Shown: positions 3,582 to 44,932, counted from the first letter of the stretch. The stretch: DNA of 56,310 nt from Promethearchaeota archaeon (GCA_048940445.1 JBHLON010000023.1:1-56310); one strand, 5' to 3'. Made by a program: numbers and translations. The notes: a model not told the origin generated them from the letters alone.

Positions 3582-3587
3582 TTTAAA

Positions 3588-7406: not shown

Positions 7407-7440
7407 TTCCCATATAAGCCATTTGGGAAAAATTTTTATA
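7407..7440 (+). promoter_or_regulatory. Inverted repeat TTCCCA-N11-TGGGAA immediately upstream of a TATA-like TTTTTATA before aclB
   Basis: Arms at 7407-7412 and 7424-7429; TATA-like element 7433-7440; aclB start 7507. Confidence 0.4.
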
Positions 7441-7506
7441 AAAACTTACTCTACACATATTAGTATATTTTTAAAATATAGTTTAAAGGCTAGGAGATAA
7501 AAGAAA

Positions 7507-8799: not shown

Positions 8800-8800
8800 A

Positions 8801-10636
8801 ATGGAAGATTATGAATTATTTGATGAGAATACTCAAGCAATAATTTATGGACTTCAAGCTGCTCCTGTCCAGAGAATGCTTGACTTTGATTATGTTTGTA
8901 GAAGGAAAAAACCTTCGGTTGCAGCAATGATTCAACCTACTCAAGGAGCTGCAATAACTTATCATAGGGCATTTTGGGGTAGTAAAGAAGTAGTTATTCC
9001 CGTTTATAAAACATTCGATATGGCAATTAAGAAGCATCCAAATGCTGATGTCATGATAAATTTTGCTTCGTTTCGGTCTGCTTACGAAACTAGTAAAGAA
9101 GCGCTTGAATCTAATACAATTAGGGTCGTTACAATAATAGCAGAAGGTGTACCAGAAAGACAAAGCCAATTATTAAATAAAATTGCTAAAGCACGAAATA
9201 AAGTAATTATTGGACCTGCAACAGTAGGTGGAATTAAGGCAGGAGCATTTAAAATTGGTAATACTGCAGGAACCTTAGAGAATATTATTTTATCAAAATT
9301 ATATCGCCCAGGCTCGGTTGGGTTTGTATCTAAATCTGGTGGTTTAAGCAATGAAATGAACTTTATGATTGCCCAAAACACAGACGGAGTTTATGAATCA
9401 ATCGCAATTGGGGGAGATCGATATCCCGGTTCCCGATTAATAGATCACCTTCTACGCTATGAAACAAATCCCAAAATAAAAATGCTAGTTTGTTTAGGTG
9501 AAATAGGAGGAACAGAAGAATACAAGATTGTTGAAGCATTAAAAAGTAGTAAAATCAAGAAACCTCTGGCAATATGGGTAACAGGAACTGCTGCAAGAAT
9601 ATTACCAAAAGGTTTACAATTTGGACATGCTGGAGCAATGGCTGGAAGTGATCGAGAAACTGCGGAGGCAAAAAATAAGGCACTTAAAGAAGTGGGAGCA
9701 TTAGTTCCTGATTCATATGAAGATTTTGATAAATTAATAAGGAGAACTTACGAGAAATTAAAACAATCAGGTAAGATTGAACCTATAAAAGAGATTGAAC
9801 CACCTGAAGTTCCTATGGATTACAACGAAGCTGTGAGGAAAGGGCTAGTGAGGCGTTCTTCAGATGTGGTGGTAACTATTTCGGATGATCGAGGTGATGT
9901 TCCAACTTTTGCGAACATTGGGCTTGATGAAATAATTCGTGAGAATAAATCTATAGGCTATGTAATCGGTCTTTTATGGTTTAAGAAAGAACTACCGGTT
10001 TTTGCTCAAGAATTCATAGAAATAGTAATAAAGCTTACTGCAGATCACGGTCCAGCTGTCTCGGGTGCACATAATGCAATTATTACTGCTCGTGCGGGAA
10101 AAGATTTGATGTCTTCATTAGCCTCAGGAATACTAACGATTGGTCCACGATTTGGGGGAGCAATCTCAGACGCTGCTAAATATTTTAGAGAAGCTCTACA
10201 AAAGAAAATGGCTCCTCATGAATTTGTTGCTTATATGAAGAATATTACACAAATAAATATTCCCGGAATAGGACATAGAATTAAATCTGTCCAAAATCCT
10301 GATGTAAGAGTGTCTTTATTGAAAGAATTTGTATTTAAGAATTTTAAGAAACATCCACATCTTGATTTTGCATTAGAAGTTGAAAAATTAACTACAGCAA
10401 AGAGAAATAATTTAATATTGAATGTCGATGGATGCATTGGAATTTGCTTTCTTGATTTACTCGAGAATTTGGATTTTACAGAAGAAGAAGTTGAAGATGT
10501 CATATATAGTGAGGCGTTAAATGGACTATTTGTATTAGGTAGGAGTATAGGGATGATGGGTCATGTTTTTGATCAAAAAAGACAACGTGCAGGACTTTAT
10601 CGACAACCTTGGGATGAAATACTTTTCGGAAGCTAA
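8801..10636 (+). CDS. aclA: ATP-citrate lyase alpha subunit (CoA-binding, pHis and citryl-CoA lyase domains)
   Basis: QRMLDFD, NFASFRSA, IGPATVGG, QFGHAGA, ADHGPAVSGAHN, IPGIGHRIKS, LNVDG. ATG at 8801 directly after the aclB stop is preferred to GTG 8789. Confidence 0.93.
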   Translation: MEDYELFDENTQAIIYGLQAAPVQRMLDFDYVCRRKKPSVAAMIQPTQGAAITYHRAFWGSKEVVIPVYKTFDMAIKKHPNADVMINFASFRSAYETSKEALESNTIRVVTIIAEGVPERQSQLLNKIAKARNKVIIGPATVGGIKAGAFKIGNTAGTLENIILSKLYRPGSVGFVSKSGGLSNEMNFMIAQNTDGVYESIAIGGDRYPGSRLIDHLLRYETNPKIKMLVCLGEIGGTEEYKIVEALKSSKIKKPLAIWVTGTAARILPKGLQFGHAGAMAGSDRETAEAKNKALKEVGALVPDSYEDFDKLIRRTYEKLKQSGKIEPIKEIEPPEVPMDYNEAVRKGLVRRSSDVVVTISDDRGDVPTFANIGLDEIIRENKSIGYVIGLLWFKKELPVFAQEFIEIVIKLTADHGPAVSGAHNAIITARAGKDLMSSLASGILTIGPRFGGAISDAAKYFREALQKKMAPHEFVAYMKNITQINIPGIGHRIKSVQNPDVRVSLLKEFVFKNFKKHPHLDFALEVEKLTTAKRNNLILNVDGCIGICFLDLLENLDFTEEEVEDVIYSEALNGLFVLGRSIGMMGHVFDQKRQRAGLYRQPWDEILFGS

Positions 10637-10756
10637 AAAGAGGTTATAAATATCATATTAAATGTTTTTTTATAAAAATAATAAATTTTAAGAAAAGCTA
10701 ATAATTAAAAAAAAAAGTCACATGCAATAAAAATGAAAAAATAAAGGAAATATAAA

Positions 10757-11968
10757 ATGGAACAAGTAATTGAAAAAGCAAAAGAACATTTTGAAGCACT
10801 AGTAAAAGCCCAATTAAATCGCATTGAAGAAATGAAAAAGGGTGCTGACTGGATTGATTACTCTTCATTAAAGCCAATTAATATTGGAGTAGCTGGTGGA
10901 GATGGTATTGGACCTGAAATTACTAAACATGCTGAAGCAATTCTGAAATTTCTATTAAAAGAAGAAGTTCAGAATGGGAAAGTTGTTTTCAAACATATTG
11001 AAGGATTGACTATTGAAAATAGAGCAAAAACAATGAAAGCTATCCCTGATGAGGTACTTGAACAATTAAAGAATTGTACTGTTATTCTTAAAGGGCCAAC
11101 GTATACACCGTCCTCACAAGATTTAGCATCTGGTAAATGGCCAAATCTCGAAAGTGCAAATGTAACCATGCGACGAGAACTAGATTTATTTGCTAATGTC
11201 CGCCCAGTTAAAGTCCCAGAGAAAGGAATTAACTGGATGTTTTTTCGGGAGAATACTGAAGGAGCTTATGTTTTAGGTTCAAAAGGTATTAAGGTAACAG
11301 ACGATTTAGCCTTTGATTTCTGTGTACATACCTTACAAGGTACAGATCGCATTTTAAGATTAGCATTCGAGCATGCTAAAAAGACTGGAATGAACAGAGT
11401 CTCGTTAGTAACAAAAGCAAACGTTGTAAAAACTACAGATGGAATGTATTTAAACATGGCAAAACAACTCGCAAAAGAAGAATATCCCGAAGTAAAATTT
11501 GATGATTGGTATATAGACATTATGGCAGCTAAATTAATAGACCCCGAACGCCAAAAAGACTTCAAAGTAATCGTAGCCCCAAACCTTTATGGAGATATTA
11601 TAACTGATGAAGCAGCCCAGATTCAAGGTTCTGTTGGTACTGCCGGTAGTGCCAACATTGGGAAGCGATACTCAATGTTCGAAGCTATCCATGGTACAGC
11701 TCCGCGGATGGTTGAAACTGGAAGGACAAAATATGCTGACCCAACGAGTATCATAAAGGCCGCAGCAATGCTTTTAAATCACATAGGTTTTGTTCAGAAA
11801 GCAAGAAAGTTAGAGATGGCTTTAGATATATGTGCAATTTATGAAAAGAAACTTAAAGTTACTGGAAGAGATACAGGTGCTACAGGAGAGCAATTTGCTG
11901 AATACATAATGGATACTTTACAAGATCCAGAACTAGAACGAAAATGGGAAAGATATCAAAAGAAATAA
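10757..11968 (+). CDS. icd: Isocitrate dehydrogenase (isocitrate/isopropylmalate dehydrogenase family)
   Basis: GDGIGPEI, SANVTMRRELDLFANVRP, RENTEG, KANV, NLYGDIITD, FEAIHGTAP; TCA context favours IDH. Confidence 0.8.
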   Translation: MEQVIEKAKEHFEALVKAQLNRIEEMKKGADWIDYSSLKPINIGVAGGDGIGPEITKHAEAILKFLLKEEVQNGKVVFKHIEGLTIENRAKTMKAIPDEVLEQLKNCTVILKGPTYTPSSQDLASGKWPNLESANVTMRRELDLFANVRPVKVPEKGINWMFFRENTEGAYVLGSKGIKVTDDLAFDFCVHTLQGTDRILRLAFEHAKKTGMNRVSLVTKANVVKTTDGMYLNMAKQLAKEEYPEVKFDDWYIDIMAAKLIDPERQKDFKVIVAPNLYGDIITDEAAQIQGSVGTAGSANIGKRYSMFEAIHGTAPRMVETGRTKYADPTSIIKAAAMLLNHIGFVQKARKLEMALDICAIYEKKLKVTGRDTGATGEQFAEYIMDTLQDPELERKWERYQKK

Positions 11969-11981
11969 GAATAGTAAATTG

Positions 11982-12000
11982 ATTTTTTATTTTTTTTTAT
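11982..12000 (+). terminator. Oligo-T tract after icd (archaeal-type terminator candidate)
   Basis: ATTTTTTATTTTTTTTTAT begins 13 nt after the stop at the end of the + strand gene run. Confidence 0.4.
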
Positions 12001-12274
12001 AGGTAATTTAATAACTATTAAGAAAATTGGATATAGATTTATTTTACAGGTTTATTTAATTTTTTTGTGTCTATTTCCCTAAATTATTCTTTTAAAAAAC
12101 TAGTAGTCTTATCTGGAAATTTATTTTTGATTTTGACTCCTAAAACTAATCCTAGTTATTTTATATCCTAATGGCTACCAAATAAATAACAGATTATCTA
12201 TTACAAATAAAAGAAGATTTATATACCACTCCATCCCAATTAATTATAATCAAATTTTAGAATGTGAAATTTTA

Positions 12275-12820
12275 ATGAAAGCAGTTAAATTGAATAAAGG
12301 ATTTCTCGTTCTACTTTCTCTTATATTTATTATATCCTTTGTGACCTATATTAAAGACTCAAAGGCAGCATGGGAAACGGAAACAATTGGACCTAATTCT
12401 GCTGTAGTCTTCAACATTCGAGGTCTTACAGCGGGTATGACAATAGAAGTCCAATATAACGTTATATCAGGTTCTGGTGGAGTTGACGCATATTTAGTAG
12501 AAGGAGTACATACTGGATTATTAATCTCCAAACCAAGTACTTATTTAATATACAGAGACAATTCTATGAGTGATAATTGGGTATATGAAGTCCCTGCTAA
12601 TAATGATTTTTGCGTCCAATTTTTTAATGATCATAATGAAGATATTACGGTGAGATTTTTGGTACAAACAAGTCTTAGTAAATTACTATTAGCTCTTATT
12701 ATTTCATCAGCTATTGCTGGACCAACAGTTGGTGCAATAGTTGCCATAATATTGGTAAGAAGGAGAAAAAAAAGAAAAGCATCTAAAGTTATCAAATCTG
12801 AACCTATAAATGCCAAGTAA
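12275..12820 (+). CDS. Type I membrane protein with p24/GOLD-like beta-sandwich
   Basis: N-terminal hydrophobic signal, ~100-aa beta-rich domain (IEVQYNVISG, VDAYLV, FCVQFFN, VRFLV), C-terminal TM helix and RRRKKRK tail. Confidence 0.55.
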   Translation: MKAVKLNKGFLVLLSLIFIISFVTYIKDSKAAWETETIGPNSAVVFNIRGLTAGMTIEVQYNVISGSGGVDAYLVEGVHTGLLISKPSTYLIYRDNSMSDNWVYEVPANNDFCVQFFNDHNEDITVRFLVQTSLSKLLLALIISSAIAGPTVGAIVAIILVRRRKKRKASKVIKSEPINAK

Positions 12821-12987
12821 TATTAAATTTCTTTTTTTAATTTTAAACCTTATTTCTATGTTCATTTTAATACTTCATCAAACCTAATTTTGAGGTTTGG
12901 TTTAATAAAAGTCGCACCAGTAATACCTAGAATCTTGCTTAATTGATAAAATTGTTAGAGATCTTATATTAAGGCGAAATACTATAT

Positions 12988-13881
12988 TTAGGAAAAAGTC
13001 AAAGTCATATTCATCAATATTATTGTTAAGATCAAGAATACCGTGCTGATTACTAGCGGGATTAACATTACACTGTACCCATATTTAGTTTGATCCAAAT
13101 GAGTTCTTCTGTGGATATAATAATAGAATATTGAACTTAATACAATTCCAAAAATAGCAAAAAGTAAAAATATCCAAAGTAAGTCGACTTTATCTCCATA
13201 TCGATTAGGAATGAGATTGGCACTGAAATGAAGTGGAACCGTTTGAGGCAATTGAAAGTAGATAATTAAGAAGTATGTTAAACCTGATATTGAGAGAATG
13301 ATTGAAATAATAAATAAAGTTAAAGCAAATTTAATGTCTTTCGAAGAGTTTATAATGGTTTTAAAGGGTTCGGGCTTTTCTATAACTTGAGACTCCACAC
13401 CTTTACTGATATCATTAAGAACTCTAATAAAGTCATCTTCTTGAGCTGGAGTTATTCCATATATTTTCTTTTTTTGGCCATTAGTTTCGACAAATAAAAG
13501 TTTCTCCAATTTGGTGGCGTATAAATTGACTGTTTCGAAATTTCCTTCGATTAAATATTTAAATTTTCCAAACAAGTATCCTGGAATCCCTACTCCACCC
13601 AATCTAATACCTTCATATTTATTTGTCTCAGGTTTAATTACTCTTTTTACATTTCCAATCGGAATTCTTGTAGTTTTTAATCCCCACTTAATTAAAAGAA
13701 AATCATTCGATATAATGTATTCCATTTCATAGTATGCATAGATTAATAATGAAAATATCGCAACGATTGCTACGAAAATACTTAACATAAGTACCAAAAA
13801 TGAAACATTTTGAAGTGCAGGATAAGTCGAAATTAAAAGTATTAAGAGTAGTATAGCAATGACTATCGTAGTAATAGTCAT
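12988..13881 (-). CDS. Membrane protein, bacterial PH domain (bPH_5-like) fused to DUF1648-like domain
   Basis: YIISNDFLLIKWG..IPI, GIRLGGVGIPGYLFGKF, ITP, LPQTVPLHF..PNRYGDK; GGAGGG upstream of the ATG. Confidence 0.65.
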   Translation of the reverse strand: MTITTIVIAILLLILLISTYPALQNVSFLVLMLSIFVAIVAIFSLLIYAYYEMEYIISNDFLLIKWGLKTTRIPIGNVKRVIKPETNKYEGIRLGGVGIPGYLFGKFKYLIEGNFETVNLYATKLEKLLFVETNGQKKKIYGITPAQEDDFIRVLNDISKGVESQVIEKPEPFKTIINSSKDIKFALTLFIISIILSISGLTYFLIIYFQLPQTVPLHFSANLIPNRYGDKVDLLWIFLLFAIFGIVLSSIFYYYIHRRTHLDQTKYGYSVMLIPLVISTVFLILTIILMNMTLTFS

Positions 13882-14151
13882 GTACTTCCCTCCATTTGAT
13901 TTTGCGGGTTTAAATATTCGATAGCTTGACGTATATTATCACTATTTTAACTTGTTTTAGCTTTTAAATTGCTTCAAATGAAAGGTGTAAATCAAACTAT
14001 TAAAGAAGGAGGATTACAATTTAAATACAGATTTGTGTTTATTTTTTAGATATGAAGCTTAAACTGAAAAAGAACTTAATTTTTATTAATAAAAAAACAA
14101 ACTAAATTATTTTTATAAAATATTTTATTTTCTTCCGATTTTATTGTATTA

Positions 14152-14973
14152 ATGATGCCCATAGATTTTCACCAAATTAAGTATGAAAAAGAAGAGAATG
14201 GAATTTTAACAGTTATTTTAAACTGGCCAGAAAAAAAGAATGCACTCTCACCTCTAGGTCTTTTAGAACTATGGTATGCCGTAGATCATGCTGAAAAGGA
14301 TAAGGAAGTCAAGGTAATGATATTAACTGGTTGTGAAGAAGCACGAGCTTTTTCTTCAGGGGGCTACTTTTCTGAAAATATGTTAAGTGATATTCCTGAG
14401 AAATATAGAAATGAGATCAATTTAAGAGATATGGCATCGAAACGGGTATGTCTTAAATTTTGGGATTTCTCTAAACCCGTAATATCAGTAATTAATGGTT
14501 TTGCTGTAGGTGGTGGGTTTACCCTTCCTGTAATCTGTTCTGATTTAGTTTATATGGCTGATGATGCTTGGTGGGCTCTTCTTTTTGTAAAAAGGGCTGT
14601 GATACCGGATTTTGCAACTACAGTGCTTTTACCACTAATGATTGGCATGAATAAAGCTAAAGAACTCTTTTATTTTGGTGATCGAATAACAGCAAAAGTC
14701 GCTGAAAATTTAGGTCTCGTTAACAAGGTAATACCAAGAGAAAAATTAATGCAATATGCGAGAAAGCAAGCTTTAAAACTCATTCCTCCTAATGGACCAT
14801 CACTATCTATCAGATTAATGAAAAAAGCAATACACACATATTTTAGAACTATTATAGAACAGCAATTGGATTTAGAAAATAAAATGTGGACTAAAGCAAT
14901 TTGTAGCAAAGATTTTGGTGAATCTCTAAAAGCATTGAAAGAAAAAAGAAATCCTATTTTTATTGGAAAATAA
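14152..14973 (+). CDS. Crotonase-family enoyl-CoA hydratase/isomerase (PaaG/isomerase-like)
   Basis: LNWPEKKNAL, FSSGG, KPVISVINGFAVGGG. Both hydratase Glu positions are replaced (GGGFTL, FVKRAVIPD) with an Asp retained. Confidence 0.85.
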   Translation: MMPIDFHQIKYEKEENGILTVILNWPEKKNALSPLGLLELWYAVDHAEKDKEVKVMILTGCEEARAFSSGGYFSENMLSDIPEKYRNEINLRDMASKRVCLKFWDFSKPVISVINGFAVGGGFTLPVICSDLVYMADDAWWALLFVKRAVIPDFATTVLLPLMIGMNKAKELFYFGDRITAKVAENLGLVNKVIPREKLMQYARKQALKLIPPNGPSLSIRLMKKAIHTYFRTIIEQQLDLENKMWTKAICSKDFGESLKALKEKRNPIFIGK

Positions 14974-15192
14974 GCATGATCTAGTTTATTCCGTAGATAA
15001 AACACTAGAATAGTTTTTATTCTGAATAGTTAAAAGAGAATGAAAGGGAAAAAGTACGAAGAATAATATGTAATTTTGAGTTTCGAGATAACTGATTTGG
15101 AGATTTTATTATTAGATTATTAAATCTTGGTCTAATTTTGTCCATTAGCTATTAAGAAAAAAATATAAAAAAAAGGAGAATTTAAGATGTAA

Positions 15193-17268
15193 TTAAGGCC
15201 TTTTCTTCCTTTTCCTTAACCAGTATATGCCTGCTAGAGCTATAAGAGTACCTCCACTTAAAGAAGAAATAACTATAATTAATGTAAGCGGAAATTCACC
15301 TGTAGGTTCTCCTTCACCTTTTAAAAGGGAATCGGGATCAACTGAAATGTATTTTTCATAATAATTATTTGCATATCCTGAGGCAGAAATAGTCATATTA
15401 AGGAGAATAGGTTCTTCGCCAGGAACTACAGTTATAGCATCAAGAGATATAAAATAGAGACCATTTTCCATACTTTGAATATCAGCAGAGACATCAATTC
15501 CGTTCCACCACATTTGTATTATTACATTATCAATTCCAGAACCCATCCTATTGTGAATAAAGAAAGTCATATTAAAGTATTCACTTGAGAAGGATTGCTT
15601 TATAATATCCAACTTTAATTTATCTTCTATTAAATCGTTTGAATGGACTGCTATGTAGGTTTTAAAATACCTGTCTTTATATCCCAAAGCAGAGATAGTC
15701 ATATTCAATAAAATAGGATCTTGTTCTAGAAGTATAATTATTGGAGTTAAGCTTATTGAGTAATTTCCGTTTCCATTATTTTTAATATTAGAAGTTACAT
15801 TTATCCCATTCCACCATATCTGAATTGTAGCATCATTAATTGGAGGTCCTGTACTGTTGCTTATATAGAAAGTTAAGTTAAAGTTTTCTGAGGAATATGC
15901 CCTCTCAACAATTTCAACATGAATTTCAGATAAATGAGGAATTATATCTATAATATCTTGTTGTAAATCACTTAAACCTTGAGCAGCAGATTTTTGACAA
16001 CTAATTATCTCTGAAAATCTTTGCGAAATAGCAGCACTAATTTCTGGATATTCTGGATGCTTTGGTCTAGCTAATGTGACATCTGAAGCTGCATAAAAAT
16101 CCGAAACATATTCAAAACCTGGTGGTAATGATGAATAAGTTTCTTTTAGCGCAGGAAAGTATCCATACGTTTGTAAATTATAATATTGAGAATAATTTAA
16201 GCAAAGCCATTTGGTGAGGTTAAAAGCGGCGTCCTTATGTTGACTAAAAGATGATATCCCAAAAATTGATCCTGCAGCAACAGATGACTTCTCATCTGGA
16301 TATCCATGAAAAGTAGGTATTGGAGCAACTCCAAATGAAGTGTTATATGGTGAATCTAGGGTTAATGAATACATATAGGGCCAATTTCTGGCAAAAAGAG
16401 CCTGTCCTGCTAACCATGTATTGTGAGTCGTTCCTTCATTATAGGTTAATGCATCACGTGAAATGATATATTTACTATTTATTAAATCAGGGGAACCAGG
16501 TGGTGCAATTAAGCCTTTTAAAAATGCTAAAGCATCAATAGCATCTGTTTGATTAACTAAAGGATTCCCATTACTATCAAATATATTTGTTACTCCATTA
16601 CTTCCAATCCATTCTTGAAAGTTGACCGTTCCACCTTCATAATTATCGAATTGGCCTATATAGCCCACTAAGTTAGGATTATTTTCTTGATGTAAAATGT
16701 CATTTGCTGTGGCATTTAATTCTGCCCACGTATCAATATCAGCAGTAGTATAATTATAGTAGGTTAAAAGATCCTTTCGATAGTATAAGGCTCCAAAATT
16801 AAGTGAATAAGGAAATGCCCAATAACTTCCTTGATATTCACATGAATCAACAATACCTGCAATATAGTTATTCATTTCATATGGGATTAAGTGGAAGTCT
16901 AGATTTTCAAGCCATCCGTTTTCAACGAATAGTGCAGTCCAAATTGCATCCAATGCCATTACATCTAAGGAAGTATCACCTGCTGCTAAATGGGTTTGTA
17001 AATAAGTCAATTGTTGGTCGGAAGTATCACCCGAGGAAATTACATTAACATCCGAAATTCCTCCTCCATATCTCGAATTTAGGAAATCAGGGATAAGATC
17101 CGATATCGGTGGTTTTATATAACTAGGTACAATAATATTTAAAATGGTAGATTGAGAGAGTTTTGGTTCTGAGGTTGCTGTAGCAGGAAAAATATAAAAA
17201 GGGGCTGAAAATAACATCAAAAACCCAATTAAAAGGATAGATAATTTCTTATTTCTATTACTTTTCAT
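15193..17268 (-). CDS. Carbohydrate-type ABC solute-binding protein with two C-terminal Ig-like repeats and TM anchor
   Basis: Signal peptide; DVMALDAIW, LYYRKDLL, QFDNYEG, ARNWPY, ARP.HPEY typical of trehalose/maltose-type SBPs; C-terminal GEFP + TM + RKRKK. Confidence 0.85.
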   Translation of the reverse strand: MKSNRNKKLSILLIGFLMLFSAPFYIFPATATSEPKLSQSTILNIIVPSYIKPPISDLIPDFLNSRYGGGISDVNVISSGDTSDQQLTYLQTHLAAGDTSLDVMALDAIWTALFVENGWLENLDFHLIPYEMNNYIAGIVDSCEYQGSYWAFPYSLNFGALYYRKDLLTYYNYTTADIDTWAELNATANDILHQENNPNLVGYIGQFDNYEGGTVNFQEWIGSNGVTNIFDSNGNPLVNQTDAIDALAFLKGLIAPPGSPDLINSKYIISRDALTYNEGTTHNTWLAGQALFARNWPYMYSLTLDSPYNTSFGVAPIPTFHGYPDEKSSVAAGSIFGISSFSQHKDAAFNLTKWLCLNYSQYYNLQTYGYFPALKETYSSLPPGFEYVSDFYAASDVTLARPKHPEYPEISAAISQRFSEIISCQKSAAQGLSDLQQDIIDIIPHLSEIHVEIVERAYSSENFNLTFYISNSTGPPINDATIQIWWNGINVTSNIKNNGNGNYSISLTPIIILLEQDPILLNMTISALGYKDRYFKTYIAVHSNDLIEDKLKLDIIKQSFSSEYFNMTFFIHNRMGSGIDNVIIQMWWNGIDVSADIQSMENGLYFISLDAITVVPGEEPILLNMTISASGYANNYYEKYISVDPDSLLKGEGEPTGEFPLTLIIVISSLSGGTLIALAGIYWLRKRKKRP
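15330..15935 (-). repeat. Two tandem ~100-aa repeats within the SBP (IQxWWNGIxV...PILLNMTISAxGY)
   Basis: Direct comparison of the two translated segments; boundaries approximate. Confidence 0.85.
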
Positions 17269-33730: not shown

Positions 33731-33836
33731 TTTCTTTTTAAGTAATTTTAATTTATTAAATTTTGTATTAAAACAAAGTAATAAATTAATACTTAATAAT
33801 CTATTGTTATAAAAATAAACAACAAAAAGGTTGAAA

Positions 33837-34237
33837 ATGGAAAAATTAAATGATTTGAACAAAAGTGTGATATTCCCCAAGGGAGAGAAAGCAACAAGTG
33901 AATATTTTACAGGAGATGTATGGGTTCAGATGCTGGTGACAGAGGAGTTATTTAATTGTCAAGTCTACAATGTAACTTTTGAACCAGGAGCAAGAACTAA
34001 ATGGCATTCACATCCAGGGGGACAAATTCTTCTTGTAACAGGAGGTAAAGGATATTATCAAGAAGATGGAAAACCAGCACAATCGCTTCAAGAAGGAGAT
34101 GTTGTGAAAATACCTCCTAATGTGAAACATTGGCATGGGGCATCAAAAGATAGTTGGTTTGTTCATATTGGTATAACTGCAAATCCTAATCTAGGAAATG
34201 CAGAATGGCTAGGACCTGTAACAGAGGAGGAATATAA

Positions 34238-34241
<4 letters not shown>
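33837..34241 (+). CDS. Cupin domain protein
   Basis: VTFEPGART.WHSHPGGQIL, HWHGA; ATG 33837 or TTG 33831. Confidence 0.9.
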
Positions 34242-36311
<2,070 letters not shown>

Positions 36312-36348
36312 AAAATCAAATAAAAACAAAAGGGGTAGATGTGAAAGG

Positions 36349-36876
36349 ATGATATCAGGAGAAAAAAAATGTTTGATTGCTTATTTTTCTAGAAAAGGCA
36401 ATAATTATGTAAATGGAAGAATTGTTAATTTAGCCATTGGCAATACTGAAGTTATAGCGAAGATGATATATGATATCATTAGAGGAGATATTTTTCGCAT
36501 CGATACGAAAAAACCTTACCCTAAAGATTATATGGAAACAACAGAAGTGGCAAAATATGAACTAAAGAACAATGCAAGACCAGAACTTACGGATCATGTT
36601 CCAGATATGGATTTATATAAAGTCATATTTTTAGGTTACCCTAATTGGTGGGGAACTCTACCAATGGCAGTACTTACTTTTTTAGAATCTTATGACTTCT
36701 CGGGAAAAACAATTATCCCTTTTTGTACGCATGAAGGAAGTGGACTTGGAAGTAGCGTAAGAAATATCGAAAAAATTTGTCCAAAAGCAGAAGTGATAAA
36801 TGCAATTGCTTTTCATGGAGGAAATGTAAAAAATGCAAGACAGGGAGTAGAAAAATGGATAAATCAGATCAATTAA
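36349..36876 (+). CDS. Flavodoxin (Flavodoxin_4-like)
   Basis: YFSR..GNT, GYPNWWG, PFCTHEGSG. Confidence 0.9.
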   Translation: MISGEKKCLIAYFSRKGNNYVNGRIVNLAIGNTEVIAKMIYDIIRGDIFRIDTKKPYPKDYMETTEVAKYELKNNARPELTDHVPDMDLYKVIFLGYPNWWGTLPMAVLTFLESYDFSGKTIIPFCTHEGSGLGSSVRNIEKICPKAEVINAIAFHGGNVKNARQGVEKWINQIN

Positions 36877-36970
36877 ATGAGAGTGTGATATTTCATAAAT
36901 GTGTAAAAATAACAAATGATTAAAAAAAATGCTAGTTTTGCATTTTTTCGCTCGAATTTAATAGTGGGTT

Positions 36971-37040
36971 ATCATTCCCTCCATAGAATTGATAATCTTA
37001 ATAATTAGTACCAAATTACTTATGATGAACAATTAAAGAT
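36971..37040 (+). repeat. 70-bp non-coding element, copy 2 (promoter region of the arcE-like gene)
   Basis: 54/70 ungapped identities with 26691-26760; ends 22 nt before the ATG at 37063. Confidence 0.75.
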
Positions 37041-37062
37041 TATCATTTGAAGGTTTCTTTGT

Positions 37063-38403
37063 ATGAGAAAAAAAGTTATTATCATTGGCGCACTAGGTAT
37101 GGACTTCTGGACATTTTTGCGAGTCTTTAAAGATAATGATGAATATGAGGTTGTTGCGTTTACTATCGCTGGTGAACAAAATGTCGGAACCACAGACGAA
37201 GCCGAAAGAAGATTTCCGGCAGAGTTGGCAGGTATCTTATATCCTAATGGAATCCCAATGGTTTCTGAAGAAGATTTAGAAGAATTAATTAAAAAGCATA
37301 ATGTCGATGAAGTGGTTTTTGCATATTCAGATGTTTCACATGAAGAAGTAATGCATAAAGCTTCGAGAGTCCTGGCAGCTGGTGCAAATTATCGATTAAT
37401 TTCAGGTCGTTTTACACAAATTAAAGCTAATAAACCTCTAATAGCCGTATGTGCGGTGAGAACAGGATGCGGAAAAAGTCAAGTATCAAGAGCAGTTTAT
37501 CGTTATCTTAAAGGAAAAGATTATAAAGTTGTAGCGATAAGAGAACCAATGCCTTATGGGGATTTAATTCAACAAAATGTAATGAGATTTGAAAAGTATG
37601 AGGACTTAGATAGGTATGATTGCACAATTGAAGAACGTGAAGAGTATGAGCCATATATTAAACAAGGCTTAGTTATTTATTCAGGTGTTGATTACGAAAA
37701 AATTATCCGTGAAGCGGAAAAAGAAGCAGATGTAATAATATTTGACGGAGGAAATAATGAGATTTCATTCTATATAACAGACTTATTATTTGTTGTTGTA
37801 GATCCTTTAAGACCGGGTCATGAAAATAAATATCATCCAGGAGAAGTTAATGCAAAGTACGCTGATGTATTTGTTATCAATAAAATGAATAGTGCTCGAC
37901 CAGAAGATGTAAAAATTGTAGAAAAAAATCTTGAGGAATTAAATCCAAGAGCAATAAGAGTATATACTAATTCAGTTGTTAAAGCAGAGGATCCCTTAAA
38001 GTTGAAAGGGAAAAAAGTTGTGGTCGTGGAGGATGGACCTACCCTAACGCATGGAGGGATGTCGATTGGTGCTGCTTATGTTGCAGCTAAGAATGCGAAT
38101 GCTAAAATTGTGGATCCTAGACCTTATTTAGTAGGTTCTATAAAGGAAGTATTTGAAGAATTTCCTCAAATTACTGAAATTGTACCTGCTATGGGTTATA
38201 CTGACCAACAAATTGATGATTTAGAAAAAACTCTTAATAACGTGAAATGTGATATCATATTAAATGGAAGTCCAATAGATTTAACAAAACTAATAAAGAC
38301 AAATAAGCCTATAGTAAAAGTAACATATGATATCGAACCAGTTAAAGAGCCTACCATAGAAAATGTGTTAGACAATTTTACTGAAAAGTATTTAAAGAAG
38401 TGA
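37063..38403 (+). CDS. Arginine synthetase (ArcE)-like / cDPG-synthetase-like P-loop protein, divergent
   Basis: FAYSDVSH, AVRTGCGKSQ P-loop, PMPYGDL, CTIEEREEYEP, DGGNN, EDGPTLTHGGM, PAMGY; OTC in the same cluster. Confidence 0.78.
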   Translation: MRKKVIIIGALGMDFWTFLRVFKDNDEYEVVAFTIAGEQNVGTTDEAERRFPAELAGILYPNGIPMVSEEDLEELIKKHNVDEVVFAYSDVSHEEVMHKASRVLAAGANYRLISGRFTQIKANKPLIAVCAVRTGCGKSQVSRAVYRYLKGKDYKVVAIREPMPYGDLIQQNVMRFEKYEDLDRYDCTIEEREEYEPYIKQGLVIYSGVDYEKIIREAEKEADVIIFDGGNNEISFYITDLLFVVVDPLRPGHENKYHPGEVNAKYADVFVINKMNSARPEDVKIVEKNLEELNPRAIRVYTNSVVKAEDPLKLKGKKVVVVEDGPTLTHGGMSIGAAYVAAKNANAKIVDPRPYLVGSIKEVFEEFPQITEIVPAMGYTDQQIDDLEKTLNNVKCDIILNGSPIDLTKLIKTNKPIVKVTYDIEPVKEPTIENVLDNFTEKYLKK

Positions 38404-38470
38404 TCTTTTCGCATAAGGATTGAAACCCTTTTACTTTATGATTAATTATTTTTAATATAAGTGATTTTAG

Positions 38471-40651
38471 ATGATTCTAAAAAGTATGCAATACCAATTT
38501 GACAAGGTTCAAAAAGGATATGCTAATCAAACATTATACATTGATTTAACCAAAAAAGAGATTCAAGTTAAACCTGTAACTAACGAAATGAAAGAAATTT
38601 TTGTTGGGGGCAAGGGATTTGACTTATACTTAATGTGGAATGGTTTACCCAAAGATAAGATTGTGAAATGGGATGATCCCGAAAATGAAATTTGTATTTG
38701 TTCAGGACCCTTGGGAGGGAGTATATTTTACCCGGGTTCAGGAAAATCAATTGTTACTTCAATATCTCCATTAACTGGGACTATTATTGATTCTAATGTA
38801 GGTGGCTATTTTGGTCCTTATCTTAAGTTTTCTGGTTTTGATGCCATTGAAATTCAGGGAAAATCTGAAAAGGAAGTGATTATCTTCATTGATGGAATAA
38901 ATCATATAGTTCATATTGAGTCTGTTGAGGAAGAAAATAATTTATCAGAATTTTCTCACGAATTGACCCAACAACTTACTAGGAAGTATGCAGATGACCC
39001 AAATGAAAAACAACGCGTTTCAGTTGTGAGTACTGGACCTGCAGCGCACCATACAAAATGGGGTATGCTGAATTTTTCTTGGTATGTTAAAGGAAGAGAA
39101 TGGGCATCATATAAACAAGCTGGAAGGGGTGGTATAGGTACTGTTTTTGCAGATAAAAAAATTAAAGCATTAGTGTGCCTATCTCCTAAAGCAACAGTTG
39201 GTTCTAATAATCCAGCAGATTTAGAAGCTGCGAGGAAAACTGGAATAAAGCATACTCAAGAAGTAATTAAACTTGATCCAAAACAAAATGAAATGCGAAG
39301 AGTAGGAACAGGTCATTTACCTGATATCATGAATGCTGCTGATCTTTTACCTACTGAAAATTTTAGGTATGGTGCTCATAAGGAGATATCTGGAAAAAAT
39401 ATACCTTTTGCACGAGATGTATGGAGAAAAGTTTATTCTGGGAAAGAAGGTGCTGATGGTTGCTGGATTGGGTGTACTGTAAGCTGTTCACATTATTCTG
39501 AAGGTTATGAAGTAATGACAGGTCCTTTTAAAGGGCAAAAAGTAATCGTTGATGGCCCTGAATATGAAACTATTGCAGGAGTGGGCTCCAATTGGGGTGT
39601 CTGGAACCCTAAATGGATATTAGAAACGTGTTTTTATTGTGATACATACGGATTAGACACGATTAGCCTGGGAACGGGTATTGCATTCGTAATGGAATGC
39701 TATGAAGCAGGTATTTTAAACAAAGAAATAACTGGTGGACTTGAGCTTAAATTTGGAAATGCCGAAAACGCTGTTGAATTAATTCATCAAATGGCTAACG
39801 AAGAAGGCTTTGGAATAGTTGTAGGACAAGGAATAAAAGAAATGAAAAAATTATTTGTAGAACAGTACGGGGCAAATCCGCAATTTGTCCAAGATATCGG
39901 AATGGAACATAAAGGATTGGAATTTTCTGAATATGTTACTAAAGAATCACTTTCCCAACAAGGAGGGTATGGACTTACAAATAAAGGTCCTCAGCATGAT
40001 GAGGCATGGTTAATTTTTGAAGATGTTATTAGACAATCAATCCCTACATTTGAGGATAAAGCAAAAGCATTATGGTGGTTTCCACTATGGCGCACTTGGT
40101 TTGGATTGTGTGGACTTTGTAAGTTACCTTGGAATGATATTCAACCAGAAAGCCAAGCAGATTATCCTATTAAGGATTCTAAAACAGGAGAGCTAATCAG
40201 AGCGAAAGTCCCTGATCATGTAAAATGGTATGCACAATTTTTCTCTGCGGTTACAGGACGTAAATCTACCCCGGATGACCTAATTAGAATGTCCGAAAGA
40301 GTATATAATTTTCAGCGAATATTTAATATTAGACAAGGGAAAGGACTTCGAGAACATGACTCTAATTTACCATATAGAGCTATGGGTCCAGTAACCCCAC
40401 TCGAATATGAAAGTCGTGTGGATCGATATGATACACAATTAAAAGATATCGGAATTAAGATTAACAACAAATCAACTGAAGAAAAGATTAAGCTTCTACG
40501 TAAGTATAGAGAAGAGCAATATCGAAAATTGCAGATTGCAGTTTATAAGGAAAGAGGTTGGAATGAAAATGGTTGTCCAACTCTCAAGAAGGTAAGAGAA
40601 TTAAGTATTGATTATGATGATGTTTTAAAGTATATTAAGCCTTATCAATAA
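38471..40651 (+). CDS. Tungsten-dependent aldehyde:ferredoxin oxidoreductase family
   Basis: SPLTG, DSNVGG, AGRGGIG, CWIGCTVSC, GPEYET, GLDTIS, GLCKL, YKERGW. Confidence 0.92.
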   Translation: MILKSMQYQFDKVQKGYANQTLYIDLTKKEIQVKPVTNEMKEIFVGGKGFDLYLMWNGLPKDKIVKWDDPENEICICSGPLGGSIFYPGSGKSIVTSISPLTGTIIDSNVGGYFGPYLKFSGFDAIEIQGKSEKEVIIFIDGINHIVHIESVEEENNLSEFSHELTQQLTRKYADDPNEKQRVSVVSTGPAAHHTKWGMLNFSWYVKGREWASYKQAGRGGIGTVFADKKIKALVCLSPKATVGSNNPADLEAARKTGIKHTQEVIKLDPKQNEMRRVGTGHLPDIMNAADLLPTENFRYGAHKEISGKNIPFARDVWRKVYSGKEGADGCWIGCTVSCSHYSEGYEVMTGPFKGQKVIVDGPEYETIAGVGSNWGVWNPKWILETCFYCDTYGLDTISLGTGIAFVMECYEAGILNKEITGGLELKFGNAENAVELIHQMANEEGFGIVVGQGIKEMKKLFVEQYGANPQFVQDIGMEHKGLEFSEYVTKESLSQQGGYGLTNKGPQHDEAWLIFEDVIRQSIPTFEDKAKALWWFPLWRTWFGLCGLCKLPWNDIQPESQADYPIKDSKTGELIRAKVPDHVKWYAQFFSAVTGRKSTPDDLIRMSERVYNFQRIFNIRQGKGLREHDSNLPYRAMGPVTPLEYESRVDRYDTQLKDIGIKINNKSTEEKIKLLRKYREEQYRKLQIAVYKERGWNENGCPTLKKVRELSIDYDDVLKYIKPYQ

Positions 40652-40687
40652 ACTTATTTAATAACAATATTCAATTTATGAGTACTA

Positions 40688-42769
40688 ATGGATAATATAA
40701 CTACACATCCTATTTTGGAAATTCCTGAACGAAAGAAGATTTCTTTTAAATTTGATGGAGAGAGTTTAACAGGATTCGAGGGTATGGTTATATCTTCCGC
40801 TCTCTTTTTAAATAAAATTAAGGTTTTTGGACATCATGTAAAAGATGAAAGCCCGCAAGGAATATTTTGCAGTAATGGTCAGTGTTCCCAGTGTAACGTG
40901 ATAGTCAACAAAATACCTGTTAAAGCATGTATGACTCCTCTAAAAAAGGATATGATTATAGAAAGTTGTAATGGGTTACCAGAATTACCCACTGATGATG
41001 AACCAGTAAGCGTGGGAAATGCGGAAATAATGGAGACAGAGGTATTAGTCATTGGTGCTGGGCCAGCTGGATTATCTGCTACAAAGTTTTTGGGAGAACA
41101 TAATATTAATGTAATCTTAGTGGATGATAAGCTTCAATTGGGAGGTAAATTAGTTCTTCAAACGCATAAATTTTTCGGATCGCAAGAAGATGTATATGCC
41201 GGTAAACGTGGCATTGAGATCGCCAAAATTCTTGGTAGTATTGTAATGTCCTTATCATCGGTAAAAATTTGGCTTAATTCAATATGTCTCGCAGTTTTTA
41301 GTGATGGATTTGTAGGAATCTTGAAAAATAATGAGGAATATGTACTAGTTCGACCTAAATACTTACTAATAGCTACTGGAGCGAGAGAGAAGATGCTGAT
41401 TTTTCCAGGGAATACCCTCCCAGGAGTATATGGAGCAGGTGCTTTTCAAACGTTAGTAAATCGAGATCTAGTTAAAGCTGCAAATAAAGTATTTGTTATA
41501 GGAGGTGGAAATGTAGGATTAATTGCTGGCTATCATGCTATTCAAGCAGGAATAGAAGTTGTAGGATTAATTGAGGCACTATCCTACTGTGGCGGATATA
41601 AGGTTCACGAAGATAAGCTTAGGCGTTTGGGTGTACCGATTTATACTAATCATACTGTTTTATCTGCTAATGGAGAAAAAAAAGTCGAATCTATTACAAT
41701 TAGTCAAATAGATCAAGACTTTAAAATTGTTTCTGGAACTGAAAAAACATTCGAATGTGATACTATTTTAATAGCAGTCGGTTTAAATCCTGTTGATGAA
41801 TTTTATCATAAAGCTAAAGACTTTGGATTTAAGGTGTGGGTAGCTGGAGATGCTCAAGAAATAGCAGAAGCATCCGCAGCTATTTTTACTGGAAAGATTG
41901 AAGCCTTAAAGATCTTAAAAGAACTTGGATTAAATATCTCAGAAAATATTAATGAACTTCAAGCGACTGCTGATATCATGAAAAAAAAGCCACCTCTACC
42001 TATTCAAAAGGATATTGAGTTTAAAAAAGAAGGGGTTTATCCTGTCTTTTATTGTAATCAAGAAATACCGTGTAATCCTTGTACATCTGTATGTGATCAA
42101 AATCAAATTGAAACAATTGACAACTTAATTACACAATTACCATATTTTAAAGGTGATAAGGAGTGTCTTGGTTGTGGTAAATGTGTTGCTGTGTGCCCGG
42201 GGTTAGCGGTTATTCTATTAGATTATAGAAAAGATAAAGATTATCCTTTGGTAACTTTTCCAATCGAGCTTACAGAAAAGAAGTTACAAAAAGGAGATAA
42301 AGTAATTGCTGTAAGTAATAATGGTGAATTAGGAGAATTCGAAGTTCATCGTTCAAGAATATTAGCTGAATTTCCTAAGACTCAACTTATAACACTTAGA
42401 CTTCCTTCAAATATAGCACAACGCGCTGTGGCAATTAAGTTATTAAAAAGCACCTATAATGAACCTATTGAATCATATCATCGTCCCTATACGGATGATG
42501 AGACAATAGTATGTAGATGTGAGCGTGTTTCTGTTGGAGAGATAAGGAAATGGATTAGATTAGGAATTCGTGATTTTAATGAATTAAAAGCTCTTACAAA
42601 AGCGGGGATGGGGGCATGTGGGGCAAAAACATGCACTCCTTTAATTGAGCAAATTTTTCGTGAAGAAGGAGTGCCTCTTGATAAAATTACTCCTGGAACA
42701 AAACGTCCTCTTTTTTTAGAGGTTCCCATGGGGATTTTTGCTAATGTAAAAGATAATAAAAAGGGGTAA
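40688..42769 (+). CDS. Fused 2Fe-2S / FAD-NAD oxidoreductase / 4Fe-4S ferredoxin / BFD-like protein (proline dehydrogenase / sarcosine oxidase alpha-like)
   Basis: FCSNGQCSQC, GAGPAG, ATGARE, CNPCTSVC, CLGCGKCVAVCPG, CRCE, GMGACGAKTC, RP. Confidence 0.85.
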   Translation: MDNITTHPILEIPERKKISFKFDGESLTGFEGMVISSALFLNKIKVFGHHVKDESPQGIFCSNGQCSQCNVIVNKIPVKACMTPLKKDMIIESCNGLPELPTDDEPVSVGNAEIMETEVLVIGAGPAGLSATKFLGEHNINVILVDDKLQLGGKLVLQTHKFFGSQEDVYAGKRGIEIAKILGSIVMSLSSVKIWLNSICLAVFSDGFVGILKNNEEYVLVRPKYLLIATGAREKMLIFPGNTLPGVYGAGAFQTLVNRDLVKAANKVFVIGGGNVGLIAGYHAIQAGIEVVGLIEALSYCGGYKVHEDKLRRLGVPIYTNHTVLSANGEKKVESITISQIDQDFKIVSGTEKTFECDTILIAVGLNPVDEFYHKAKDFGFKVWVAGDAQEIAEASAAIFTGKIEALKILKELGLNISENINELQATADIMKKKPPLPIQKDIEFKKEGVYPVFYCNQEIPCNPCTSVCDQNQIETIDNLITQLPYFKGDKECLGCGKCVAVCPGLAVILLDYRKDKDYPLVTFPIELTEKKLQKGDKVIAVSNNGELGEFEVHRSRILAEFPKTQLITLRLPSNIAQRAVAIKLLKSTYNEPIESYHRPYTDDETIVCRCERVSVGEIRKWIRLGIRDFNELKALTKAGMGACGAKTCTPLIEQIFREEGVPLDKITPGTKRPLFLEVPMGIFANVKDNKKG

Positions 42770-42774
42770 TTATT

Positions 42775-43938
42775 TTGGAATATGATGTCATAATCATCGG
42801 TGCAGGTAGTGTTGGCGTTCCTACAGCATTAGCAACATCAAAAGAAGGATTAAAAACTCTTGTTATAGATTCTCTGCCTTCTGTAGCCCAAGCAGATAAT
42901 AAACATGCAATTGGAGGTATTCGAGCAACACATTCTCAAAAGAGCAAAATCTGGCTATGTCAAAGGTCTATTGAAATTTTTTCAACATGGGAAGAAGAAT
43001 TTGGAGATGATATTTGGTGGAACCAAGGAGGTTATACCTTTCTTGCTTTTACAGAAAAAGATGAAGAATTGTTAAAAAGTACAGTTAAATTACAAAAAAG
43101 TTACGGACTCAATATTGAATATGTTGAACCTGATACAATTAAACAATTAATACCAGGAATTAATTCACACCAACTATATGGAGGAACTCATAGTCCAGAA
43201 GATGGTAATGCCTCACCGTTATTATCAGTAAATGCTTTTTATCGTCATTCAAAAAATTATGGAGCTGAATATAGGTTTAATGAAAGCGTGACAGGAATTT
43301 TAACAAGTAATGGAGAAGTAACTAAAGTACAAACTACTAAGAGTTCATATAAAACTCGAAATGTCGTTAATTCAGCTGGGGCATATGCAACTGAGATTAG
43401 TAGAATGATTGGATTCGATCTGCCTATAGCTCCTGAATCTCATGAAGCGGGGATTACAGAGCCTATTAAAAATTTTTTCTCTACTATGATTGTTGATATT
43501 CAACCTGCAAAAGACGATACATTTGGAGATTCTAAAAACTATTACTTTTACCAAAATAAGGAAGGAAAAATTATTTTTTGCTTAACTCCGAAACCAAACA
43601 TACGTGGAGTAGATAGAAGAGAAACAAGTTCATTCTTACCTCAAGTTACGAAACGTATGGTTAGATTAATACCTCGTTTGAAAAATATTAAAGTAAGGCG
43701 TACTTGGAGAGGTTTATACCCTATGACTCCTGATGGTAATCCAATTTTGGGAAGAGTTGATGATGTGAGAGGTTATACTAACGCAGTTGGGATGTGTGGA
43801 CAAGGTTTTATGTTAGGACCTGGACTTGGAGAACTAATAAGCAGAATCTTATCTGAGAATTTAACAGAGAAAGATAAAGAGATTCTTTTTGATCTTAGAT
43901 GCTCTCGTGAATTTTGCCAAGAAGAAGAGTTAAAATAA
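42775..43938 (+). CDS. FAD-dependent DAO-family amino-acid dehydrogenase (proline dehydrogenase / sarcosine oxidase beta-like)
   Basis: GAGSVG, GGIRA, RTWRGLYPMTPDG.PILG, GQGFMLGP. Confidence 0.87.
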   Translation: MEYDVIIIGAGSVGVPTALATSKEGLKTLVIDSLPSVAQADNKHAIGGIRATHSQKSKIWLCQRSIEIFSTWEEEFGDDIWWNQGGYTFLAFTEKDEELLKSTVKLQKSYGLNIEYVEPDTIKQLIPGINSHQLYGGTHSPEDGNASPLLSVNAFYRHSKNYGAEYRFNESVTGILTSNGEVTKVQTTKSSYKTRNVVNSAGAYATEISRMIGFDLPIAPESHEAGITEPIKNFFSTMIVDIQPAKDDTFGDSKNYYFYQNKEGKIIFCLTPKPNIRGVDRRETSSFLPQVTKRMVRLIPRLKNIKVRRTWRGLYPMTPDGNPILGRVDDVRGYTNAVGMCGQGFMLGPGLGELISRILSENLTEKDKEILFDLRCSREFCQEEELK

Positions 43939-43984
43939 ATTTTTATTTCTCAATTTATTATATGAAATAAATTAAGGTAATAAG

Positions 43985-44932
43985 ATGGTAATATACATGG
44001 TACGACATCTTACTAAAATATCTGATTTTTCAAAAGATGAATGCGAGAAAGTGATAAATCAAGCAATTAAGATAAAAAAAGATCCTGAAAAGCATCAGAT
44101 GGCTTTAAAAGGAGAAACTTTATTGATGTTATTTGAAAAGCCCTCGTTAAGAACACGAATATCTTTTGAAACAGGGATGCAACAATTAGGAGGTCATGCA
44201 ATTTTTTATTCTATAACAGATTCTCCTCTTGGAAAGAAAGAAAATATTCAAGATACCGCTAAAGTAGCATCTCGTTATGTAAATCTCATTGCTGCTCGAG
44301 TGTTTAAAAGACAAGATATTTGGGATTTAGCTAAATATTCAGAGGTTCCAGTTATTAATATGCTCGATGATTTCGCACATCCATGCCAGATTTTAGCAGA
44401 CTTTATGACAATTAAAGAGAAAAAAGATCAATTATCGAATTTAAAACTAGCATATTTTGGAGACGCCCATAATAACGTAACCTATGATTTAATGCGAATG
44501 TGTGCGATATATGGCTTGAGAATGGATATTGCATGTCCAAGCGGAGTTGAGTATACTCCAGAGCAAATAGTGTTAGATGAGGTTAAAGAATTATCAAAAC
44601 CGACTGGGGCAGAAGTAAAAGTAATGCATAATTCATTTAAAGCAGCAGAAGGTTCAGATATAATCTATACAGATTCTTGGATGAGCTATGGTATACCTGC
44701 AGAGAAAGAAGAAGAAAGAAAAAAAGCTTTTATGCCTTTTCAAGTAAATTTAAATGTGCTAAAATCAGCTAAAAAAGATGTCATTTTTATGAATTGTTTA
44801 CCAGCTATGCGGGGATATGAACAAACAGCTGAAGTGATCGATGGACCTCATTCAATTGTTTATGATGAGGCTGAAAATAGACTTCATGCCCAGAAGTCAT
44901 TAATGCTTTTACTAAGAAATAAATTTGATTAA
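43985..44932 (+). CDS. argF: Ornithine carbamoyltransferase
   Basis: KPSLRTR, HPCQ, NNVTYDL, TDSWMSY, MNCLP, EAENRLH; the start may be ATG 43997. Confidence 0.93.
   Translation: MVIYMVRHLTKISDFSKDECEKVINQAIKIKKDPEKHQMALKGETLLMLFEKPSLRTRISFETGMQQLGGHAIFYSITDSPLGKKENIQDTAKVASRYVNLIAARVFKRQDIWDLAKYSEVPVINMLDDFAHPCQILADFMTIKEKKDQLSNLKLAYFGDAHNNVTYDLMRMCAIYGLRMDIACPSGVEYTPEQIVLDEVKELSKPTGAEVKVMHNSFKAAEGSDIIYTDSWMSYGIPAEKEEERKKAFMPFQVNLNVLKSAKKDVIFMNCLPAMRGYEQTAEVIDGPHSIVYDEAENRLHAQKSLMLLLRNKFD

Follow-up and report, generated by a model that had tools for sequence, protein, structure and literature searches.

A lineage-specific Lokiarchaeia operon linking an ArcE-like arginine synthetase and ornithine carbamoyltransferase to an AOR-family oxidoreductase and a candidate proline dehydrogenase

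Here we report a five-gene operon in a Lokiarchaeia metagenome-assembled genome (Promethearchaeota archaeon, GCA_048940445.1) that would funnel arginine and proline to glutamate-5-semialdehyde, which an AOR-family enzyme would oxidise to glutamate without an NAD-dependent 1-pyrroline-5-carboxylate (P5C) dehydrogenase (P5CDH); we assign this reading a probability of about 0.6. The operon encodes, in order, an ArcE-like arginine synthetase, an AOR/WOR-family catalytic subunit (hereafter the AOR), a fused Fe-S/flavin electron-transfer subunit (alpha), an FAD amine dehydrogenase subunit (beta) and an ornithine carbamoyltransferase (OTC). It lies in a window that is a complete 56-kb contig (JBHLON010000023.1:1-56310; 56,310 nt) of a 3.64-Mb assembly, 93% complete, and close homologs of the five genes are found in Promethearchaeota/Lokiarchaeota records.

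Results

The operon, its genomic complement and the proposed pathway

The five genes are co-oriented on the plus strand and separated by 67, 36, 5 and 46 nt in order, in agreement with a sequence-only reading of the window, which had put the gaps at 5-67 nt and had seen neither an arginine deiminase (ADI) nor a carbamate kinase (CK) there. Indeed, ADI was not found anywhere in the host genome, and the only CK gene of the genome was located on another contig (C42), 3.4 kb from a gene for a RocD ornithine aminotransferase that scores over the TIGR01885 cut-off; in 13 related loci, CK directly follows OTC. ArgG, ornithine cyclodeaminase, ProA and a TIM-barrel proline dehydrogenase (ProDH; Pro_dh) were likewise not found in the genome, nor was an NAD-linked P5CDH of the TIGR01237 type. 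ProC, three full-length genes of the Glu/Leu/Phe/Val dehydrogenase family, and carA with a contig-truncated carB are present. Ornithine cyclodeaminase was rejected as the ornithine link on the basis of its absence from the search results.

In the proposed pathway, whose every substrate and direction is a prediction built on observed gene identities, linkage and profiles, ArcE would convert arginine, ADP and Pi to citrulline, NH3 and ATP, the reaction shown for TK2200 of Thermococcus kodakarensis. OTC, judging from its family membership, would split citrulline into ornithine and carbamoyl phosphate, from which CK would form a second ATP, and RocD would convert ornithine to glutamate-5-semialdehyde/P5C. 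Beta would feed L-proline into the same P5C pool, the fused alpha passing the electrons onward. Context and profiles suggest that the AOR would then oxidise the semialdehyde to glutamate, yielding low-potential electrons for ferredoxin, and that it probably replaces the usual NAD-dependent enzyme in this step. As a side branch, ProC could divert P5C to proline.

The AOR belongs to a separate clade with the second shell of aldehyde-oxidising members

All four [4Fe-4S] ligands (Cys331, Cys335, Cys339 and Cys550) are present in the AOR, and these and the second-shell residues Thr280, Glu364, Glu366, Tyr488 and His509 are conserved in 108-114 of the 114 clade members. Alignment to 1AOR places Thr280, Glu366, Tyr488 and His509 on the second shell of aldehyde-oxidising AOR/WOR enzymes, that is, Thr243, Glu313, Tyr427 and His448 in the numbering of AOR Pf (PMC12096430). 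In fold, the protein is equally near to Pyrococcus furiosus FOR (1B25/1B4N) and AOR (1AOR), the top two hits in Foldseek, and it has their cluster ligands and second-shell residues, but it differs from both in identity (24-25%), length (726 vs ~610 aa), its Cx3Cx3C cluster motif and its placement in a separate clade of the tree (support 100). The structure model is of low confidence at residues 486-506, a cofactor-proximal region. Identity to all solved AORs is 18-25%, and scores against models of characterised subclades fell far short of their cut-offs (PRK09849, 97 vs 868 bits; GAPOR, 53 vs 1300), so that no subclade-level grouping with AOR sensu stricto, FOR, GAPOR, WOR5, BamB or YdhV was obtained. 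No characterised member of the clade was found among solved structures or in the literature searched.

Two basic residues bear on the substrate. In the alignment, FOR Arg492 is matched by the invariant Lys551, and FOR Arg479, two residues before Arg481, by Arg541; this Arg541/Lys551 motif is mostly absent from aligned AOR paralogues. We take FOR Arg481 and Arg492 to anchor the distal carboxylate of glutarate, which our literature search did not confirm, and the basic residues of the AOR would accordingly line up with the presumed glutarate site. FOR has been proposed to oxidise glutaric semialdehyde (PMC12096430). The metal of the AOR is probably tungsten: a TupABC-type transporter gene set lies beside moa cofactor genes on contig C78, which is consistent with tungsten, if indirectly, and WtpA was not found in the host genome. 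The same genome holds 11 more AOR-family ORFs (two partial), 23-31% identical to the AOR of the operon.

Alpha and beta resemble archaeal dye-linked L-proline dehydrogenases

The best PDB match of beta is 1y56_B (E 2e-53; the next, 1e-25), the beta subunit of the P. horikoshii L-proline dehydrogenase complex (PMC4364671). At Arg50, His223, Tyr257 and Met346, beta has the residues of 1y56_B, and none of the four varies among 47 homologs. According to Pfam, alpha carries [2Fe-2S], FAD/NAD(H), two [4Fe-4S] and BFD-type [2Fe-2S] domains in one chain; among 45 homologs there is no change in any cluster Cys, in the second GxGxxG or in the Glu296 that lies downstream of it, and the PDB matches of alpha are sarcosine oxidase alpha and PH1363. 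A DAO-family beta closest to PH1364, paired with an Fe-S/flavin partner, is the make-up of heteromeric dye-linked L-proline dehydrogenases. Neither subunit approaches the sarcosine oxidase models (soxA, 155 vs 1164 bits; soxB, 106 vs 529), alpha has 693 vs ~965 aa and is without the long C-terminal stretch found in sarcosine oxidase alpha, and beta is also far below the thiO (glycine oxidase) cut-off. Beta is thus most like the beta subunit of archaeal dye-linked L-proline dehydrogenases, and its context supports an inferred L-proline-to-P5C activity. Compared with the Thermococcales complexes (PH1363/PH1364, 1Y56, and the alpha-beta-gamma-delta enzyme of T. profundus; PMC4364671), beta keeps the active-site residues and alpha the flavin and Fe-S make-up; what sets the pair apart is the fusion of the Fe-S, ferredoxin and NAD-flavin parts into a single chain and its link to an AOR gene.

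Gene 1 fits an ArcE-type arginine synthetase, and gene 5 is an OTC

Gene 1 has no Pfam match, and its homologs are named GTPase or cDPG synthase in databases. Its sequence similarity to true cDPGS is confined to 24.5 bits (E 1e-4) and does not extend over the full length. The structure model (pLDDT 91) is nearest to cDPGS (Z 20.4, 20% identity) and then to Aquifex aeolicus LpxK (4ehx, Z 17.2). For TK2200, the T. kodakarensis ArcE, a P-loop fold nearest to LpxK (Z below 19) and a weak similarity to cDPGS have been published, and Lokiarchaeota are listed among ArcE carriers (PMC11032458). Since the fold profile of gene 1 is the one published for TK2200, an ArcE identity is favoured. The arcE-like gene is single-copy and co-occurs with OTC and CK genes, but with no ADI gene that could be found, in the host genome, and it adjoins them in some relatives; a haloarchaeal plasmid homolog, 50% identical to gene 1, adjoins arcC. 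Gene 1 keeps 118 of the 145 columns conserved among distant Asgard homologs, and most of its differences are common to a Loki subtype. Taken together, gene 1 fits an ArcE-type arginine synthetase by fold, homolog names and context. The broader "guanidino" substrate range put forward at the outset gained no support, TK2200 being L-arginine specific (PMC11032458).

The OTC exceeded the cut-offs of TIGR00658 (365 vs 281 bits) and PRK00779 (371 vs 306); a putrescine carbamoyltransferase identity was rejected (TIGR04384, 281 vs 500 bits). Its motifs SLRT, DSWMSY and MNCLP are invariant in 23 homologs and common to the Giardia enzyme, and its best PDB match is 3grf, which we take to be the Giardia OTC. 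Most OTC homologs have 310 aa, which makes the second ATG, at 44000, the probable start. Loki OTC has been placed with a Metamonada-containing clade, at a time when no Loki deiminase sequence was available (PMC5052871).

The operon is a lineage-specific union of two modules

Of 25 related Loki loci, 19 repeat the order arcE>AOR>alpha>beta>OTC, with AOR identity down to 67% and other genes often interposed, and this recurrence makes the arrangement more than chance. A convergent rocD follows CK in 12 of these loci, and in one sister genome the cluster is arcE-OTC-CK-rocD, the AOR-alpha-beta insert being absent. Within the host's order, arcE and the AOR gene lie within 5 kb in 15 of the 17 genomes having both; in other Asgard archaea they are unlinked in all 47 such genomes, and ~1.7 Mb apart in two single-contig genomes. 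Outside the clade, AOR-alpha-beta occurs without arcE/OTC, and arcE without AOR. All arcE-linked AOR copies fall into one clade of the AOR tree. These data indicate an AOR-alpha-beta block inserted in an arcE-OTC-CK-rocD core in one Lokiarchaeia clade: the operon is real, lineage-specific and made of two modules. Unlinking of the AOR and dehydrogenase genes from arcE/OTC in relatives had been named in advance as an outcome that would tell against a joint pathway; the linkage holds inside the host's order and is lost outside it.

In five of the Loki loci, a co-oriented gene for a 540-aa D-aminoacylase-like amidohydrolase lies between beta and OTC.

The AOR clade occurs with genes of P5C, proline and ornithine metabolism in other lineages

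The AOR clade was detected in 72 of 151 Asgard genomes and 37 of 121 Desulfobacterales, and also in Bathyarchaeia and Thermoplasmata. In Desulfobacterota, the block is usually GntR-alpha-beta-AOR, with no arcE. Among the 121 Desulfobacterales, which are related and not independent, so that Fisher tests overstate significance, beta is present in 27 genomes and the AOR in all 27 of these, against a base rate of 37/121. Nine genomes have a complete stand-alone TIM-barrel ProDH and no PutA, and the AOR is present in 9/9, the base rate being again 37/121; by eye these ProDHs are of three sequence types, and no P5CDH neighbour was seen. A stand-alone ProDH needs a separate enzyme to oxidise the semialdehyde, a role that the AOR would fill in these nine genomes. 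A stand-alone TIGR01237 gene was not found in any of the 121 genomes, and PutA-type genes are depleted with the AOR (11/37 AOR-positive vs 52/84 AOR-negative genomes).

On separate branches of the AOR tree, the neighbours of the AOR gene are proC (at least three branches), an aminotransferase gene nearest to PH1423 ornithine delta-aminotransferase (7vno), and genes of the ornithine cyclodeaminase family. Moreover, two other Asgard families encode a TIM-barrel ProDH, non-homologous to beta, at a distance of 1-4 genes from the alpha-beta pair (loci L181, L182 and L183). Proline dehydrogenases of two unrelated folds and aminotransferases of two types thus point at convergence on P5C/glutamate semialdehyde as the likely shared intermediate. 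A general replacement of ProBA by the AOR was rejected, since most of the AOR carriers tested have ProA.

Surroundings of the operon

The coordinates of the operon are given in Table 1. A sigma-70 promoter scan stayed at shuffle level and identified no promoter, the sigma-70 model being unsuited to archaea. A convergent gene sits downstream of OTC. Directly upstream, positions 33831-36876 of the window contain, by eye, cupin-like, Zn-dependent alcohol dehydrogenase-like and aldo-keto reductase-like genes, together with a flavodoxin gene; the GC content of this segment (0.41 vs ~0.31) may mark an acquired cassette. A further cluster at 415-11968 encodes aconitase, citrate synthase, a succinyl-CoA-synthetase-like subunit, both ATP-citrate lyase subunits and isocitrate dehydrogenase, so that citrate synthase has ATP-citrate lyase at its side. 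On contig C42, a lysine fermentation-like set was recognised by eye at ~8900-16800 (cleavage enzyme, dehydrogenase, 2,3- and 5,6-aminomutases), ~7 kb from rocD.

Table 1 Features of the operon and its upstream region in the window
Feature	Position	Strand	Details
AT-rich gap upstream of arcE, presumed promoter region	36877..37062	+	186 nt; sequence only
arcE-like arginine synthetase (ATP-forming arginine deiminase), Loki subtype (gene 1)	37063..38403	+	446 aa; P-loop residues 133-139
AOR/WOR-family catalytic subunit, candidate glutamate-5-semialdehyde oxidoreductase (gene 2)	38471..40651	+	726 aa; AFOR_N and AFOR_C
Fused Fe-S/flavin electron-transfer (alpha) subunit (gene 3)	40688..42769	+	693 aa; Fer2_4, Pyr_redox_2, Fer4, Fer2_BFD
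FAD amine dehydrogenase (beta) subunit (gene 4)	42775..43938	+	387 aa; TTG start; DAO
OTC, Giardia/Metamonada-like (gene 5)	43985..44932	+	315 aa; NCBIfam cut-offs exceeded

Discussion

Several observations weigh against an arginine and proline route ending in AOR-catalysed glutamate formation. The full operon is confined to a single clade and counts as one event. In family f7, the AOR is present in 28 of 32 genomes, whereas RocD, beta, ProC and Pro_dh are each found in 0 of 32, and in the f7 genomes examined, a more distant PH1423-like aminotransferase is all that was found. In the Loki genera g3/g6, the AOR is present, yet no arcE, RocD, beta or ProDH was found, and proA is kept in 5/5 genomes tested. 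Eleven AOR-positive Desulfobacterales retain PutA, and the adjacency of proC may partly reflect a pilT-proC-divIVA neighbourhood. A formate-tetrahydrofolate (THF) ligase gene follows the AOR gene in eight loci, mostly of one Desulfatiglandales-like branch. In an N-terminal motif of gene 1 (window 37099-37119), Trp16 and Leu19 stand in place of the His and Asn found in nearly all relatives; Trp16 is shared only with one close relative, an independent record, and Leu19 is rare. All Loki ArcE copies examined are without Arg at position 13, and the altered motif belongs to the Loki subtype.

The electron balance is a further difficulty. The Pro/P5C couple lies at about -0.12 V, a value for which our literature search gave no confirmation and at which it could reduce neither NAD nor ferredoxin, and a fermenting archaeon offers no obvious acceptor for proline-derived electrons. 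Given this potential, alpha-beta may pass its electrons to a high-potential carrier, may run in reverse and reduce P5C, or may be coupled to the AOR. Oxidation of an aldehyde can reduce ferredoxin, so the coupling of ATP formation to ferredoxin reduction suggested by the sequence-only reading may hold at the AOR step, whereas proline oxidation alone could not provide it. The route that it had drawn, from Arg through Cit and Orn/Pro to a semialdehyde and an acid, is retained as to the union of an ArcE-type arginine route with an AOR, an amine dehydrogenase and a semialdehyde-to-acid end. A link from ornithine to proline is not: RocD would take its place, and proline would enter as a parallel feed and not as an obligatory intermediate.

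The same potential gives grounds for running alpha-beta in reverse. With the AOR in the role proposed here, alpha-beta would be a P5C reductase, half of the ornithine-derived P5C going to glutamate and half to proline, so that arginine would be fermented in a redox-balanced, Stickland-like manner that may involve electron bifurcation. The NAD(H)-type site and four Fe-S clusters of alpha would suit such a role, as would the finding that beta never occurs without the AOR in the 121 Desulfobacterales. However, the host genome already has ProC, the characterised homologs are described as proline dehydrogenases (PMC4364671), the oxidative stand-alone TIM-barrel ProDHs are equally AOR-dependent, and alpha-beta lies far from the AOR gene in many other Asgard genomes; we consider the reductase unlikely. 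Equally unlikely in our view is that AOR-alpha-beta acts on another pair, such as sarcosine or an N-methyl amine going through formaldehyde to formate, or on another omega-semialdehyde, and is merely co-regulated with the arginine genes in peptide fermentation. Both alpha and beta belong to the sarcosine oxidase superfamily, the formate-THF ligase neighbours keep a C1 substrate alive, f7 and g3/g6 keep the AOR with neither RocD nor beta found there, and the D-aminoacylase-like gene follows beta in the five Loki loci. On the other side, the ligase link is largely limited to one branch, alpha is shortened relative to sarcosine oxidase alpha, and beta is far nearer to 1y56_B; such substrates would also leave the association with stand-alone ProDHs and the recurrent proC and ornithine aminotransferase neighbours unexplained.

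The pathway might also run in the biosynthetic direction, the AOR reducing glutamate with ferredoxin of low potential, RocD forming ornithine and OTC and ArcE forming arginine, in place of ProBA and ArgG/H. AORs can reduce acids (PMC12096430), a biosynthetic ArcE has been raised for genomes of such a profile (PMC11032458), and the host genome, with its carA and truncated carB, yielded neither ArgG nor ProA. This direction nevertheless appears very unlikely to us, given that CK stands in the cluster in 13 loci, that Giardia uses an OTC of this type in catabolism, that the route has no place for a proline dehydrogenase, and that ProA is kept in most AOR-positive Desulfobacterota loci tested and in 5/5 g3/g6 genomes, so that the AOR does not complement a loss of ProA. 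Least probable of all is that gene 1 is a cDPGS or a drifted copy and no ATP is formed at the first step, a suspicion raised by the database names, the top fold match and the off-consensus N-terminal motif. True cDPGS is only ~20% identical at the E value given above, weak cDPGS similarity and occurrence in Lokiarchaeota are both stated for ArcE itself (PMC11032458), and the conserved columns and the OTC and CK context without a detectable ADI argue for an active enzyme.

We therefore retain arginine and proline catabolism to glutamate as the favoured reading. It shares with the T. kodakarensis arginine synthetase pathway (ArcE TK2200, OTC TK0871, CK TK2158 and ornithine aminotransferase TK2101; PMC11032458 and PMC13260591) the combination of an ArcE-like protein, OTC and CK with no ADI found, and the conversion of ornithine to glutamate semialdehyde. 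It differs in the clustering with an AOR and a proline dehydrogenase-like pair, the RocD-type aminotransferase, the Giardia-like OTC and the divergent ArcE subtype; in T. kodakarensis, ornithine feeds proline synthesis, and the available parts of the two sources describe no semialdehyde oxidation. The proposed carbon path, from ornithine and proline through the semialdehyde to glutamate, is that of the RocD/ProDH/NAD-dependent P5CDH route (Bacillus roc/put, PutA), but ArcE/OTC/CK would stand in for arginase, a DAO-family complex for the TIM-barrel ProDH, and a metallopterin enzyme for the aldehyde dehydrogenase. The arginine synthetase pathway, the archaeal proline dehydrogenase complexes, the roc/put carbon route and each of the protein families are already known. 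In line with the supposition that their combination had not been described as an operon, in the literature searched, with incomplete coverage and limited access to subscription journals, no paper on the operon or on an AOR-family glutamate semialdehyde oxidoreductase was found.

Many AOR/WOR clades are without a known substrate (PMC12096430), and a widespread one now gains a specific, testable candidate. If the favoured reading is true, the AOR would be a non-orthologous replacement of P5CDH, by which anaerobes lacking RocA or PutA could bring the breakdown of arginine and proline to its end and conserve the low-potential electrons, and peptide-fermenting Lokiarchaeia would gain two ATP per arginine. 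In a more far-reaching and doubtful version, the clade would be a dedicated tungsten glutamate-5-semialdehyde oxidoreductase, alpha wiring its electrons, of very low potential, to the proline/P5C couple, of high potential, by confurcation onto NAD or bifurcation to ferredoxin; Asgard archaea and sulfate reducers would then have a new, energy-conserving way of fermenting arginine and proline. ArcE would in addition fill the place of the missing Loki ADI, and its pairing with a Giardia-type OTC is relevant to where the arginine pathway of eukaryotes came from.

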